Positions 42,222 through 48,390 of a stretch of DNA of 64,000 bases are shown here, piece by piece. The number at the start of each line of letters is the position of its first letter. Position 1 is the first letter of the stretch. Location: contig CAYYQL010000010.1 of the NCBI GenBank assembly GCA_964473825.1, forward strand, positions 14,692 through 78,691. The letters run 5' to 3'. Both the position numbers and the translations under genes were made by a program. The notes beneath the pieces are model-generated. The model made no database searches and had not been told where the DNA came from. It was given only the letters and a program-made list of their open reading frames with translations. This DNA is from an uncultured archaeon (GTDB lineage Archaea > Asgardarchaeota > Thorarchaeia > Thorarchaeales > Thorarchaeaceae).

Positions 42222-42917
42222 CTAGGTGATGGAATGGAGATGGGCTCTTCCGCGTCTACCTACTAGCTTCACGATTCCTATCTTTCTGAGAGTGTACGTC
42301 ATTTTCCTTGCCAGCGCAGGTGGCCGCTTGATTTGCTCTGCGAGTTCAGCATTGGTGAACGGACTCGTCAGGTCTTCTGGGATGAGTTTCAGTAAGTCTG
42401 ATGGGCTCTCAAACAACTGACTATCCACTACTTCCACTAGATTAGTATCAACGATACTCCAACCTCTGCGTCTCCAACTTCCATGCCCGTCCTGCCTGCG
42501 AGTCTCCTCTGCCCTGACCTGCAGGACATCAATACTGAAACGAGCATGTTCAATGAGTCTGGGAAGGTAGACCATCTCATAGAAGACGTCGTGGAAACTC
42601 TCCTTCTTGGGTGAGAGACGCTTCTCAATTACTTCTGATCCATCTGGTGTTTCTTTCACTATGTACTTCTCTGATATCACAGGATAGACCAGGCGCACTC
42701 TGTGTCTGGTGAGAAGATCCCGGAGTTTCGCTTTGATCGCTGAGAAACTTGTGGTCTGTATCTCGATTAAGAGATCATCTCGTACGATATCGATTACATA
42801 ACCATCTACCTCGAACTCAACACAATCGCCAGGTTCTGTATACCACTCCTTCAGTCCGGCATGGAGTGAGCGCTCTTGTAGCGTTCCGATATGCGGGCTC
42901 GAGGGATTTTTCGCCAT
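42222..42917 (-). CDS. PD-(D/E)xK-like protein with C-terminal winged helix
   Basis: ERSLHAGLK, GYVIDI, IEIQT; C-terminal FTNAELAE...KMTYTL. Confidence 0.65.
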   Translation of the reverse strand: MAKNPSSPHIGTLQERSLHAGLKEWYTEPGDCVEFEVDGYVIDIVRDDLLIEIQTTSFSAIKAKLRDLLTRHRVRLVYPVISEKYIVKETPDGSEVIEKRLSPKKESFHDVFYEMVYLPRLIEHARFSIDVLQVRAEETRRQDGHGSWRRRGWSIVDTNLVEVVDSQLFESPSDLLKLIPEDLTSPFTNAELAEQIKRPPALARKMTYTLRKIGIVKLVGRRGRAHLHSIT

Positions 42918-43042
42918 ATTACTGCACTCGCTGTACACAATCTCCAGCTTTCCACTTGGGATGAACAGGCCAATAGTCGGGGTGAAAAAAGACACGGCCG
43001 AGGATTCAGCCCACGGCCTATTCTAGATGGCGGATATCGCTT

Positions 43043-43207
43043 CTATTCCTTCAGCGTCAAGTCGTCACCGCAACAAGTGAAACTACAGCCGCACTGGTCC
43101 TCGTCGTTGCAGCACTCCGTACACTCGCTGAGGATTTTGATTTCAAGTCCACAGGTCTCGCATGCATAGACCTGTCCTTTTTTCATATCATGACAATGTA
43201 GTGACAT
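43043..43207 (-). CDS. Small Cys-rich desulforedoxin-like metal-binding protein (54 aa)
   Basis: MKKGQVYACETCG...CCGDDL; GGAGAGG RBS. Confidence 0.75.
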   Translation of the reverse strand: MSLHCHDMKKGQVYACETCGLEIKILSECTECCNDEDQCGCSFTCCGDDLTLKE

Positions 43208-43383
43208 TTCTTCAACCTCTCCACAATTTCGTGTCTTCCCGATATGTTTTGTACATATGTTCTTTGTGCTATCTCGAAGCGTTGTGCTTGGGTTGGTGCT
43301 CAATAATACTCCCTCTTAAAGGAGGCTGCTTCCAACTCACTCTAGTATAGAGTCGACCGTATAAACGCGAGGTAGCAATAGAG

Positions 43384-44142
43384 ATGGATGATCATGTTGA
43401 ATCTGAGCTCTACGCGTCGATAGCCACGCTGGATCAGTTCAAGAAGATGTTCGACATGGGCGCTGTGGATGTTCGTTCCTACGAGCGCGAATCAGAGGCT
43501 CTTGTCATGGATATCCGAGAGAATCTTGATAGATTGCGTCGGATGGGCAGAGATGTAACCGGATTCTTTGAGAGTGAGGGCATTGTTTCCCGTTTTCCCG
43601 AAGCCGCAGGAGTGCTTCGAATTCTACCACAACAGTCTGCTGCTTCCATGCAGGGGATGACGTCGGATGAATACTATGACTACATTGGTCTGGCGGTGCT
43701 TGACGTTGCAACTGAGAACGCAACAAAGGGTCTTATGGGTTTGGCAGAGCTGATTGTGGACGTTGTACGACGAACCCCCGAACTCAAATCCGTCAGCTAT
43801 AATGATGTGATAGAGGCAGTGGATCGAGTTGCAGAGCACGGTCTCATTCCAGGAATTCGAACACTAAGCGGAGGCGTCAAAGTTGTTGAATTGAGGCCTT
43901 TGGAACTTCGGCAAGACCAGGCTGATGTCATCAATCTCGCAGCGTCCAAAGGATTTGTTTCTATTGAGGAAGTAATCATGAAGCTGAAATGGTCTGAAGA
44001 CCACGCTCGAACCGTCCTCTCAAGCCTTGTGGAGGCAGGCATGGCTGTGGCCGACATCCGATTCAGCACGGGGGGAAGATACTACTTTCCCGGCCTAAGA
44101 TCAAGGACAGATGTTGACTCGAATGGCAAGCATAACCGCTAG
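43384..44142 (+). CDS. Fusion of Vps28-N-terminal-like helical hairpin and Vps22/36 (EAP30) tandem winged helix
   Basis: N-terminal SELYASIATLDQ...SYE...FPEA; C-terminal DEYY..IG...VSYNDV...PLEL..DQ...GFVS...LKWS...G.A..D...YYFPGL. Confidence 0.85.
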   Translation: MDDHVESELYASIATLDQFKKMFDMGAVDVRSYERESEALVMDIRENLDRLRRMGRDVTGFFESEGIVSRFPEAAGVLRILPQQSAASMQGMTSDEYYDYIGLAVLDVATENATKGLMGLAELIVDVVRRTPELKSVSYNDVIEAVDRVAEHGLIPGIRTLSGGVKVVELRPLELRQDQADVINLAASKGFVSIEEVIMKLKWSEDHARTVLSSLVEAGMAVADIRFSTGGRYYFPGLRSRTDVDSNGKHNR

Positions 44143-44146
44143 CCTG

Positions 44147-44851
44147 TCATACGACCAGCACAACAGCGCCGCGTTCCTTGTCTACCCATCTCGCATAACC
44201 ACGTTCTACAAGCAGTTCCATGATACGGCGAAGGTCGCCCTCCGGGAGGCGTCCGAAACCTTCTCTACCCTGTTGGATGACAATCGACTTAACATCAAGA
44301 TGCATCAAGCCCGTTTCAAGTGCCCAACGGTAGATATGGTCAGCCCAGTCCTCCAAAGGTCGCCAGTAGACCCGAAGCTGACGCTTCTCATCTCCGATCC
44401 ACTGTGCTATGTTCTTTTCTACAAGGGTATCTCCAAGGATCTCAAACGCATCAGCCTTACCGACAATCCCGCTAAACGGACTCTCGGTTATGAAAGTCGT
44501 AATCGATATGACGTGAAGCTTCTGGCTCTCCATCCATGTGAGTATGAAGTCTGTCCAATCTCGTGCCCAGAGTTGTATGCCCTCTTCGTAATCTGGAACC
44601 TGATACATCCACTCCGCCTCTTCGGCATTCCCCCAGCGCGGCTGGATCTCCTCGGCTTCAATTGCAGTCTCTCGTGATACAGCAGCCTCTTCTTCGGACT
44701 CTGTGACGGTCACAGCTTCTTTTACACTGACTTCGGGTACGTGTTGATCCGTAGAAGTCTTGGTCACGATTTGCTCTTCTGACTCTTCTTCCGACTCGCG
44801 CTTCTTCTCGACGTTCTTCTCCTTCTCTTTTGATCTCTCACGAACATTCAT
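44147..44851 (-). CDS. vps25: ESCRT-II Vps25-like protein with acidic N-terminal extension
   Basis: W..WTDFIL, VYWRPLEDWADHIYRWALETG, LVERGYARW match Vps25 winged-helix motifs. Confidence 0.85.
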   Translation of the reverse strand: MNVRERSKEKEKNVEKKRESEEESEEQIVTKTSTDQHVPEVSVKEAVTVTESEEEAAVSRETAIEAEEIQPRWGNAEEAEWMYQVPDYEEGIQLWARDWTDFILTWMESQKLHVISITTFITESPFSGIVGKADAFEILGDTLVEKNIAQWIGDEKRQLRVYWRPLEDWADHIYRWALETGLMHLDVKSIVIQQGREGFGRLPEGDLRRIMELLVERGYARWVDKERGAVVLVV

Positions 44852-44854
44852 CAG

Positions 44855-46063
44855 CTACGAGCCCTCCGCCCAGTCTATATATCGCTTGACATCTTCGGGC
44901 GACGTTGCAGGTCTGATATTCTCGATAGCTGATAAGAAGTCATAGCGCTCAACAGGTCTCAAGTCGAATATTTCCGACTCTTCATCCAAACGTCCACTTG
45001 TTTGAAGTTCTCGAATCGGCTCCATTGCCGCCTCTCGGCACACAACACTGATGTCCCGTCCACTGTATCCCTCTGTCAGGTCAGCCAACTCCGCGAAGTC
45101 TACGCTGGGGGCTATCTCTATCTCCTCCATATGAATATTGAATATCTTCTTTCGAGCCTCGCCACCTGGCAATGGCACATGGATTCTTTTCTCAAATCTT
45201 GACCGCAGAGCAAAGTCGAGCTCCCAAGGAAGGTTTGTGGCTCCGATCACTGTGATTCTCTCGTCCTCGCGACTACCAAGGCCCTGTAACTCGGTCAGCA
45301 GCTGCGTCTTCAGACGCCTTTCACCTCCAACATCATCACCGGACCTGGAAACTCCTATAGAATCGAGCTCATCGATGAATATTATAGCGGGTGGATGCTT
45401 TCGTGCCAGTTCGAAGAGAGTCATTACCAGTCGTTCTGATTCGCCGAGCCACTTGCTTACTATATTGCCGGCTGACACATTGAAGAATGTCGCGTCAATC
45501 TCTGAGGCCACGGCCTTTGCTATGAGTGTTTTACCACATCCCGCAGGACCATAAAGCAAGATGCCTCTCCAGGGTTGTCTCGCCTTTCCACGGAAAAGCT
45601 CGGGATGCTTCATGGGCGCAAGAATCGCGTCATCAATTGCCTGCTTTGCATCCTCGAGATCTGCGACCTCTGACATTCTAACATCTGGGCGCTCCGAAAC
45701 TATTGTATCTTCTATCATATCTCGCAGTCTGACGGTATCCTCGTCAATCTCTTTCTCTTCGGCAGAGACTTGAGCAGGCACTGGCTCTTCTCTCTCAAGG
45801 GGGTCTGGTGGTGTTTCGAGTCCATGGACAGGTCCTGACTTCTTCTTGATGCCGGAGAGATACCGGACCCTGTCAACGCACTCTTGTGCTCTCTTGAGAT
45901 AGTGTTTCCTGATAGAGGGCAATGCTGCCGAGTTTGACAGTTTAATCAGCACCTTGCTGGCCTTTAGATAATACTGGCAGGCCTCCTTTCCCATCCCTCT
46001 CTTGTCTAGGTCTATAGCCTTGTCAAGTAGCGCTTTGAGACCCTGATCTATTCTATCCACCAT
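44855..46063 (-). CDS. vps4: Vps4 AAA ATPase with MIT domain
   Basis: MIT (AIDLDKRG...Y...RAQE), PWRGILLYGPAGCGKT, SKWLGESE, FIDELD, GATNLPWELD, TEGYSG. Confidence 0.93.
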   Translation of the reverse strand: MVDRIDQGLKALLDKAIDLDKRGMGKEACQYYLKASKVLIKLSNSAALPSIRKHYLKRAQECVDRVRYLSGIKKKSGPVHGLETPPDPLEREEPVPAQVSAEEKEIDEDTVRLRDMIEDTIVSERPDVRMSEVADLEDAKQAIDDAILAPMKHPELFRGKARQPWRGILLYGPAGCGKTLIAKAVASEIDATFFNVSAGNIVSKWLGESERLVMTLFELARKHPPAIIFIDELDSIGVSRSGDDVGGERRLKTQLLTELQGLGSREDERITVIGATNLPWELDFALRSRFEKRIHVPLPGGEARKKIFNIHMEEIEIAPSVDFAELADLTEGYSGRDISVVCREAAMEPIRELQTSGRLDEESEIFDLRPVERYDFLSAIENIRPATSPEDVKRYIDWAEGS

Positions 46064-46223: not shown

Positions 46224-46838
46224 TTGGGTCCAATTCGAAAGGCTTTCAGATGGGGCAAAAAACGCCCAGATGTCGGTGAAGTTTCAAGTCAGCTTCGGGT
46301 TCTGTCAAAACAGCTGGCGCGAGAACGCAACAAACTCGAGAAAGAAGCTCGTGATACTAGGGCTCGAGCTGTACGTGCCAGGAAGGAGGGCAGGATTGAC
46401 GCGTACAAGACCTATGCCGCTGAGATGGTCCGGTTCCGACGCTTCGCTCTCTCTGTGGACAAGTCCCGTCTTCAAATCCTGAAGATCTTGGCCTATATCA
46501 CTCGAGCGCAGACCACAGCCAAGGCTAATGTTGCACTGGAGAAAGTCGCTGACATCCTGGGGCTCTTAGGTGACACCACGGACACACTGAAGGTCGTGGA
46601 GAATGTGGATGAGATTGGTCGTCGGTTGGAGCAGTTTGAGATAGAGTCCAGCATGTCGACAGAAGCCCTCGACACGACTGAGATTGGTGAAGTCACTTCA
46701 GAAGAGCTCGCTACGGCCATGGCCGAGATAGATGCAGAAGCGGGTGCATCCACATCTCGCGCGAAAAAGGCTCCTATGACAGAATCTGAAGAACTAGAGG
46801 CTGAGATCAAATCACTGGAACAAGAACTAGGTGTCTAG
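46224..46838 (+). CDS. ESCRT-III Vps2/24/46-like (Snf7 family) subunit
   Basis: Basic N-half (EG..DAYKTYAAEMVRFR), acidic C-half, C-terminal MIM1-like ELEAEIKSL. Confidence 0.88.
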   Translation: MGPIRKAFRWGKKRPDVGEVSSQLRVLSKQLARERNKLEKEARDTRARAVRARKEGRIDAYKTYAAEMVRFRRFALSVDKSRLQILKILAYITRAQTTAKANVALEKVADILGLLGDTTDTLKVVENVDEIGRRLEQFEIESSMSTEALDTTEIGEVTSEELATAMAEIDAEAGASTSRAKKAPMTESEELEAEIKSLEQELGV

Positions 46839-46839
46839 C

Positions 46840-48390
46840 TCACCAGGAAGAATCAGATCTCTGCTTCATGGCCTCATACATTTCTTTCCGAGTTCTGTAG
46901 GAGTCGAGCATTAGACTCCTGTATCTTCTCACGAAATCTTCAGGGACAAGCCGTCGATTCCTAAATAGGTCCACGGTTCGCGAAACTGCCTGCTGCAAGT
47001 CTCTGGCATCTCTTTTGAGGTGCTGTATCTGGGGGTCGGCACCTCCGAGTCGGTCTTCACGTCCGAGAGATGCTCGAGAGAGGACGTCCTCAAGGTGGTC
47101 GGTGAAATGCTGAGCTCCATACTTGTCCATGGTGCCATAGCCTGCTGCAGGGCGTTTCTGATAGTGATATCTCTCATTCATAGTGAGGTTTTCTGCGCGT
47201 TTCCGATTGCCTGAAGACAAGAGTGAATACACAAGTTCTTCTATCTTGAGACGTACGTCACTGATATTGAAACTCGACTGTTCAATGCGCCTCACCCGCT
47301 GCATATCCGTCTGCATGTATCTATCGAACTTCTTTGCTATCTCTAGATAGTCTGGAAGAACCTCCTCGGTCTGCTCGTCACAGGATATCTTTAGGTCTCC
47401 CTGTTTCATCTTGAGAACGAGGCGCTTTCTGATCCTCCCGTCCTCCTCCATGGAGTTGAGATAGACGAGGGGGAAATCGAAGAGGACTTCCATCTTCTTT
47501 CGAAAAGTTCCCACTTCGGCTATGAACACAATTCTCTTGTTCGTTATATAGAGTGTCCCCGTTGCCTTGTCGTGCTTAAGGAAATCGCTACCTGTAACTC
47601 GAATCTCGGGCAATGCGCAGACAGGGAGTTCATTGACAGACAGTTCAGCGTGTTCGTAGAATCCCGCAAATTCCTTACGATAGTAGTCAAGGCCCTCAAG
47701 CTGGGTTGTCGATTCGTCTAGTCGAACAACGCAGTCATCCAACGCATCATCAACACCAGACTTGAAATGCTCTCCCAGTTCTCCAATTCGGTTTGCAACA
47801 CCCTCAATAAACGGAAACTGATCGGGGGTCCAGCCATTGGGGTCGATTATTCCCTTGGTCTCGGCAGCCATCTGACGTCCGACCATATCTGCTTGGTTGA
47901 CAACTCTCTTTTTCACGGCCAATGCTTCATCTTGGATTCTCTCGATATTGTCTTCAATCCAGTGATAATGGAGAAAATTGGCCATTCTCAATGAAACCAG
48001 TAGCCTCTTCGAGGCAGTAAGCTTGCTGTTGAACTCCCTCAACTTGAGATGACCATACTGGAGTGACATAATGGACTCTCGCAGCTTCTTTCCAAGGTTC
48101 CTTCTCTTGTCAGCTATAGCGACTATCTTGGAGGAGTGACATCGGGGGCAGATCTCTTCTATTCTTTTCCCAATGCTCAGTTCTTCACACTCGCATTCGG
48201 GGCACTTTTCGAAGGGCCCCCCGGCCTCTGGAGTTCCTAGAGTATGATGGCACTCTGAACAGACATAGTACTCCGTGGTCTTACTCTCAAGACAATCCAG
48301 ACAGAAGTTCTCGCCGCAGTCTTCGCACATGTGAGTTGCCGTGATTCTCTCGCAAACTCTGCATTTTCTGTGGGAGCTGCCTACCTTCAA
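46840..48390 (-). CDS. Multi-domain protein: FYVE/B-box-like Zn fingers, helical region, GRAM/GLUE-like PH domain, Vps23-like steadiness box
   Basis: Six CxxC pairs; GTLYITNKRIVF; C-terminal AVSRTVDLFRNRRLVPEDFVRRYRSL. Confidence 0.7.
   Translation of the reverse strand: MKVGSSHRKCRVCERITATHMCEDCGENFCLDCLESKTTEYYVCSECHHTLGTPEAGGPFEKCPECECEELSIGKRIEEICPRCHSSKIVAIADKRRNLGKKLRESIMSLQYGHLKLREFNSKLTASKRLLVSLRMANFLHYHWIEDNIERIQDEALAVKKRVVNQADMVGRQMAAETKGIIDPNGWTPDQFPFIEGVANRIGELGEHFKSGVDDALDDCVVRLDESTTQLEGLDYYRKEFAGFYEHAELSVNELPVCALPEIRVTGSDFLKHDKATGTLYITNKRIVFIAEVGTFRKKMEVLFDFPLVYLNSMEEDGRIRKRLVLKMKQGDLKISCDEQTEEVLPDYLEIAKKFDRYMQTDMQRVRRIEQSSFNISDVRLKIEELVYSLLSSGNRKRAENLTMNERYHYQKRPAAGYGTMDKYGAQHFTDHLEDVLSRASLGREDRLGGADPQIQHLKRDARDLQQAVSRTVDLFRNRRLVPEDFVRRYRSLMLDSYRTRKEMYEAMKQRSDSSW

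Follow-up and report, generated by a model that had tools for sequence, protein, structure and literature searches.

The fusion of a Vps28 N-terminal domain to the winged helices of Vps22 was published in 2024. Makarova et al. (PMC10936438) described Asgard Vps22 (cog.002769), in general wording, as fused to a steadiness box, and an entry in their Table S3 assigns residues 1-70 of the Thorarchaeota Vps22 KXH75178.1 to the VPS28 N-terminal domain (HHpred, 99%). As far as that entry describes it, this protein has the same architecture as the one studied here, with a Vps28-type N-domain preceding the Vps22 winged helices. The table also lists a remote Vps28 match (2J9U, 84%) in another Thorarchaeota protein, and its text was found to mention neither the loss of a separate Vps28 nor a repeated origin of the fusion. 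In the two-hybrid work of Hatano et al. (2022; PMC9192718), the Thorarchaeota proteins ThorAB25_09030 ("Vps22") and ThorAB25_08990 ("SB") are orthologues of our fusion protein and of its neighbour P0317, and are encoded in the same gene cluster. ThorAB25_09030, for which self-interaction was reported, is treated as a plain Vps22 in the passages describing it, and its Vps28 head goes unremarked there.

In the eukaryotic ESCRT-I headpiece (2f6m, 2caz, 6vme), the head of Vps28 has the same fold as that of the fusion and contacts a Vps23-type steadiness box, a contact that is modelled in the present case. Eukaryotic Vps28 then continues into a four-helix C-terminal domain that binds Vps36, whereas the fusion continues into Vps22 winged helices; this pair resembles that of eukaryotic Vps22/SNF8 (3cuq, 1u5t), in which it follows an N-terminal helical domain that is replaced in the fusion. 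Hatano et al. report that a full Vps36 is absent from Asgard archaea. They also describe a UEV-Vps23-Vps28 fusion in Heimdallarchaeia (HeimAB125_14070), which likewise joined neighbouring genes of the vps23-vps28-vps22 array, but which lies within ESCRT-I and keeps the Vps28 C-terminal domain (Vps28-C), while the Thorarchaeota fusion crosses the boundary between ESCRT-I and ESCRT-II and has lost it.

The window, a 64,000-nt stretch of contig CAYYQL010000010.1 from a member of the Thorarchaeaceae, contains the fusion gene within a cluster of ESCRT genes:

43384..44142, + strand: Vps28N-Vps22 fusion gene (P0001), 252 aa
43393..43626, + strand: Vps28 N-terminal domain of the fusion (aa 4-81), from profile, fold and hhalign matches; helices 3-24 and 30-53 form the steadiness-box hairpin, and 58-80 the three short Vps28-type helices
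43627..43662, + strand: variable linker and fusion junction (aa 82-93), with pLDDT under 50 at 81-87
43663..44097, + strand: Vps22-type tandem winged-helix pair (aa 94-238), from profile and structure model
44147..44851, - strand: vps25 (ESCRT-II), convergent with the fusion gene, Pfam PF05871 E 2e-11
44855..46063, - strand: vps4, with MIT, AAA and Vps4_C Pfam domains
46224..46838, + strand: ESCRT-III (Snf7 family), Pfam PF03357 E 5e-8
46840..48390, - strand: Znr_CC_PH_SB (P0317), 516 aa, with Zn-ribbon, coiled-coil, PH and steadiness-box parts; proposed partner
46855..47037, - strand: Vps23-type steadiness box of P0317 (aa 452-512), the modelled head-binding site

This five-gene cluster was kept in all 16 family loci compared (16/16), and vps25 adjoins the fusion gene in every fusion locus examined. 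In the sister family, Znr_CC_PH_SB is encoded elsewhere in the genome, on a different contig from the fusion. On the other side of the fusion gene, two minus-strand genes (42222-43303), encoding a 257-aa protein with weak HTH matches and a Cys-rich protein of 86 aa, separate it from aspS, unlike the arrangement in many family genomes, where aspS directly precedes the fusion gene.

A Vps28 head on Vps22 winged helices

The first-pass annotation of this DNA had recognized in the open reading frame a Vps28 N-terminal domain (aa 1-80) followed by an ESCRT-II Vps22/36 winged-helix pair. The C-terminal half was matched by Pfam EAP30 (E 6e-14) across residues 89-224, but only through profile positions 82-218, and since the match begins at position 82, the N-terminal helical part of EAP30 is missing from the fusion. 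A family profile searched against the PDB matched human SNF8 (3cuq_A) at E 1.9e-20 and VPS36 (3cuq_B) at E 0.81, indicating that the winged helices are those of Vps22; SNF8 was the top PDB match of the fusion in both sequence and fold searches. The "Vps22/36" label is therefore narrowed to Vps22. The structure model of the 252-aa protein showed a linker of low confidence at residues 81-87 followed by two winged helices, and no PH domain, be it of the Vps36 GLUE or split-PH kind, was present in that model.

The head was more elusive. Pfam VPS28 scored the fusion protein alone only weakly (E 0.22; E 1e-4 for the sister-family orthologue), and the same profile run against the whole genome missed the fusion altogether, returning one weak unrelated match (E 0.28), such that Asgard-built profiles were needed to detect the Vps28 head in the genome. 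A profile of the Vps28 N-terminal domain (Vps28-N) from 19 Asgard proteins had a single significant match in the genome, the fusion open reading frame (E 6e-16). In the reverse direction, the family profile searched against 1.8 billion proteins matched three full Asgard Vps28 proteins through residues 4-87 (E 2e-10 to 1e-8), two of which are named as Odinarchaeia and Jordarchaeales.

Foldseek searches with the full-length model matched the winged helices only, and for this reason the head was folded alone. It was predicted with a pLDDT of 90 as a long hairpin followed by three short helices. All ten top Foldseek matches of this model were Vps28 chains (TM 0.63-0.81), though every E-value exceeded 0.1, and VIA-align placed it on 6vme_E (Z 11.7, rmsd 2.0, 80 aligned residues), then on 2caz_E (Z 9.3), with the next match at 7.8. 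These structural Vps28 matches are chains of ESCRT-I headpieces. Because Z-scores of this size fall within the chance range for helical folds, the identity of the head is carried mainly by the sequence evidence.

The sub-threshold Pfam score of the single protein and the Foldseek E-values of so small a helical domain could suggest a generic helical hairpin at the N-terminus, or a Vps22 N-domain that has diverged there; an assembly error could also have created the junction. All of these are highly improbable and are refuted by the following results. The hhalign comparison gave a probability of 99.5% for the fusion head against Asgard Vps28-N (37% identity, 78 columns) versus 0.4% against the normal Asgard Vps22 N-domain, and the 80-residue structural alignment includes the extra helices specific to Vps28. 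The reading frame runs uninterrupted over the junction, which a contig assembled independently from a second sample in the same study also spans without a gap, differing by 9 substitutions. Of the 76 other family genomes, 67 encode the full-length fusion, which excludes a misassembly; the single genome from the sister family encodes it too. Homologues share 60-90% identity with it along almost its entire length, and the majority of those with names are from Ca. Thorarchaeota.

We thus confirmed that the protein consists of a Vps28 N-terminal domain and a Vps22 winged-helix pair, and that it lacks both Vps28-C and the N-domain usual for Vps22, as the first-pass annotation had stated. Profiles of Vps28-C had no match in the open reading frame, where the corresponding stretch is a winged helix in the model, and EAP30 positions 1-81 were unmatched. 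Profile searches of both halves, superposition on the ESCRT-I structures and the presence of the fusion in other genomes all bear out the domain assignment that the annotation had proposed.

Lineage range and the fate of the parent genes

The published wording extends to Asgard archaea as a whole, whereas the unfused Vps22 proteins that we found outside the fusion lineages carry a normal EAP30 N-domain. Searches of Vps22 from Baldr-, Sif-, Hod/Heimdall- and Odinarchaeia with unfused genes detected no Vps28 head, and EAP30 matched these proteins from its first positions. Vps28 and Vps22 were encoded by separate genes at 17 loci belonging to other Asgard families. The Vps28N-Vps22 fusion therefore looks like a trait of particular lineages rather than of Asgard Vps22 in general. 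One further candidate, family f24, combined weak Vps28 and Vps22 scores, but its two genes turned out to be separate.

Profile searches of the 96%-complete genome that contains the window detected no second Vps28-N, no significant Vps28-C and, using the Asgard Vps22-N profile, no normal Vps22 N-domain. Vps28-C-like scores on three contigs (C29, C37 and C38) were weak (E 0.02-0.13). Across the genomes of the family, the Vps28 profile mostly gave a single match each, with E no better than 1e-17; five genomes with two matches were checked, and in these the fusion head was accompanied by a weak match in a protein of ~1000 aa. The fusion thus looks to have replaced both parent genes in Thorarchaeales.

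Of the 17 loci with separate genes, 15 have vps28 in the same orientation as vps22 and at most 450 bp upstream of it, several times within 25 bp, and because of this proximity the fusion was probably made by deletion. The simplest history would be one in-frame deletion, in the ancestor of Thorarchaeales, within an ancestrally tandem vps28-vps22 pair. Such a deletion would have taken Vps28-C together with the Vps22 N-terminal helical domain, leaving one protein to do both jobs.

Two Asgard families have free-standing Vps28-C genes (95-98 aa) between a full vps28 and vps22 (L058:4340-4624 and L064:3370-3663), and four other loci have gaps of 300-450 bp that may contain such genes as well. Elsewhere, a 156-aa open reading frame (L074:4473-4940, minus strand, genome G297) carries Vps28-N and lacks Vps28-C; Vps22 was not found in that genome, which is 82% complete.

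Recurrence in Odinarchaeia and Ranarchaeia

The same two domains also occur together in one protein from Ca. Odinarchaeia (P0130, 299 aa; L043:8001-8900, GCA_054383955.1) and in another from Ca. Ranarchaeia (P0128, 315 aa, with a long linker; L040:3136-4083, GCA_054386775.1). The Odinarchaeia fusion directly follows a UEV-Vps23 gene, in a locus that includes ubiquitin and a RING gene, and fills the slot of vps28 plus vps22. The Ranarchaeia fusion resides in a cluster resembling that of Thorarchaeales, comprising vps25, vps4, ESCRT-III and Znr_CC_PH_SB. More Vps22 sequence is retained at both junctions than at the Thorarchaeales one, and the Odinarchaeia protein keeps an Odin-type motif ahead of the first winged helix. 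Further fusions of either type were searched for and not found.

In phylogenetic trees, the Odinarchaeia fusion was nested among unfused genes, including those of Odin/Jord-type loci, in a clade with full support. Joining it to the Thorarchaeales clade was rejected (p-AU 0.033 for the winged helices, 0.018 for both domains), as was a single origin of all fusions (p-AU 0.028 and 0.003, respectively). The grouping of Thorarchaeales with Ranarchaeia was not rejected (p-AU 0.33 and 0.25), and the Ranarchaeia branch is long. The best reading of these sequence comparisons, which draw on a single Odinarchaeia protein present on two or three contigs, on short alignments and on taxa of our own choice, is that the fusion arose at least twice, with the Odinarchaeia copy apparently independent of that of Thorarchaeales.

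A candidate partner and the proposed ESCRT chain

The fifth gene of the cluster encodes a candidate partner for the Vps28 head. The C-terminal steadiness-box hairpin of P0317 is conserved across the family and resembles the C-terminal part of yeast Vps23 (E 0.03-0.05), and the Ranarchaeia orthologue of Znr_CC_PH_SB matches Pfam Vps23_core (E 9e-4). Modelling two copies of this steadiness box with one head gave a score of 0.82, compared with 0.29 for the best control; this mark was attained by 58 of the 80 solved complexes and by 2 of the 110 mismatched pairs in the calibration, outside which our own alignments and the 2:1 design fall. At least 97% of contacts were shared between model runs, and the partner had a pLDDT of 84 or more; confident contacts came from only one of the two steadiness-box copies. 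The closest predicted contacts involve A11, A14 and T15 of the head, all three invariant in the family alignment, with F486, Y490, M494 and Y498 of the steadiness box, where contact residues are 90-100% conserved. Since a Vps23-C:Vps28-N complex has been solved (2f6m), the passing score may reflect likeness to the headpiece rather than binding of this particular pair. Within these bounds, the modelling supports an interaction between the head and the Znr_CC_PH_SB steadiness box.

This putative partner carries Zn ribbons and a PH domain in place of the ubiquitin-binding UEV domain of the eukaryotic headpiece. A search for E2/UEV proteins that was positive in two control Asgard genomes found none in this genome and none in three further Thorarchaeales genomes, and no ubiquitin was found in this genome either, in agreement with Hatano et al. 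(PMC9192718).

In the reading that we favour, to which we assign a probability of about two in three, the fusion is the Vps22 of Thorarchaeales, made by in-frame deletion, whose head pairs with the Znr_CC_PH_SB steadiness box and whose winged helices pair with Vps25, covalently linking ESCRT-I to ESCRT-II, which is the likely role of the protein. Znr_CC_PH_SB would sit at the membrane through its PH domain; the head would pair with its steadiness box, as modelled, mirroring the Vps28-N/Vps23-C pairing of the ESCRT-I headpiece; the winged helices would bind Vps25, which would recruit ESCRT-III and then Vps4, the membrane placement, the Vps25 binding and this order being taken from eukaryotic ESCRT-II. 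With the two complexes covalently linked in this scheme, Vps28-C would not be needed. Several points weigh against it: other steadiness-box-like hairpins in the genome could be the partner, the Znr_CC_PH_SB gene of the sister family is unlinked to the fusion, and the relevant text of Hatano et al. has the steadiness-box protein binding "Vps28" in Thorarchaeota, yet the Thorarchaeota set there lists no Vps28. The first-pass annotation had proposed that the fusion replaces the non-covalent bridge between ESCRT-I and ESCRT-II. This proposal fits every result obtained, including the lack of a separate Vps28, the loss of Vps28-C and the modelled steadiness-box contact, and we retain it at the level of interpretation; the contact replaced would not be the eukaryotic one between Vps28-C and the Vps36 zinc finger, as Asgard archaea have no full Vps36 (PMC9192718).

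The self-interaction of the orthologous Thorarchaeota Vps22 in the two-hybrid assay could instead indicate that the head is a dimerisation module that replaces the Vps22 N-domain, pairing two fusions, or a fusion and the 770-aa EAP30 paralogue encoded in this genome, into an ESCRT-II stalk without any tether to ESCRT-I. One dimer surface of Heimdall Vps22 reported in the same source maps to residues 41-47, a region lost from the fusion. A second surface given there, at winged-helix residues 160-167, could explain self-binding without the head; the head, moreover, retains the conserved Vps28 motif, which packs against a Vps23-type steadiness box in the model. We regard dimerisation as an unlikely account of the head, although the two roles are not mutually exclusive.

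It is similarly improbable that the head serves as a hub for several steadiness-box adaptors, rather than mainly for Znr_CC_PH_SB, and anchors ESCRT-II to membranes without ubiquitin; such adaptors might include a UPF0182 membrane protein with a steadiness-box-like insertion and a protein with a similar tail encoded beside an Arf-like GTPase. Hairpins resembling steadiness boxes or CdvA do occur in this genome on contigs C5 (1003 aa; UPF0182 E 2e-19, CdvA E 0.03) and C4 (210 aa; CdvA E 0.03), five family genomes have a similar match in a ~1000-aa protein, and the genome yielded neither E2/UEV nor ubiquitin. But these hairpins match weakly, and their genes lie apart from the ESCRT cluster, with which only Znr_CC_PH_SB stays linked.

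The 1003-aa UPF0182-family membrane protein (L077:1621-4632, minus strand) has its steadiness-box/CdvA-like hairpin at about residues 270-330, and is a possible membrane anchor for ESCRT. A second ESCRT-II-related cluster (L078:3389-8775, contig C4) encodes the 770-aa protein, which ends in EAP30 and is divergent from a 400-aa gene, together with the Arf-like GTPase and the 210-aa protein with a steadiness-box-like tail.

Since the fusion itself is published, the value of the present analysis is in the corrected range and the recurrence; together with the apparent loss of a separate Vps28 and a named partner, these are modest additions. They bear on how ESCRT-I recruits ESCRT-II in Asgard archaea, which lack the Vps36 zinc finger bound by eukaryotic Vps28-C: the joint deletion of Vps28-C and Vps22-N in a natural fusion points to these domains as the ancestral bridge. 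For Thorarchaeales, Znr_CC_PH_SB offers a testable ESCRT-II partner in a lineage without ubiquitin. A broader reading, to which we give slightly less than an even chance, is that Vps28-N became joined to the Vps22 winged helices, and Vps28-C was lost, on two or three occasions in Asgard archaea (in Thorarchaeales, in one Odinarchaeia lineage with ubiquitin and UEV-Vps23, and in Ranarchaeia), and that the Thorarchaeota chain of Znr_CC_PH_SB, fusion protein, Vps25, ESCRT-III and Vps4 is a minimal, ubiquitin-free one. If this is true, the sole essential job of Vps28-C and Vps22-N in Asgard archaea would be to connect ESCRT-I to ESCRT-II.
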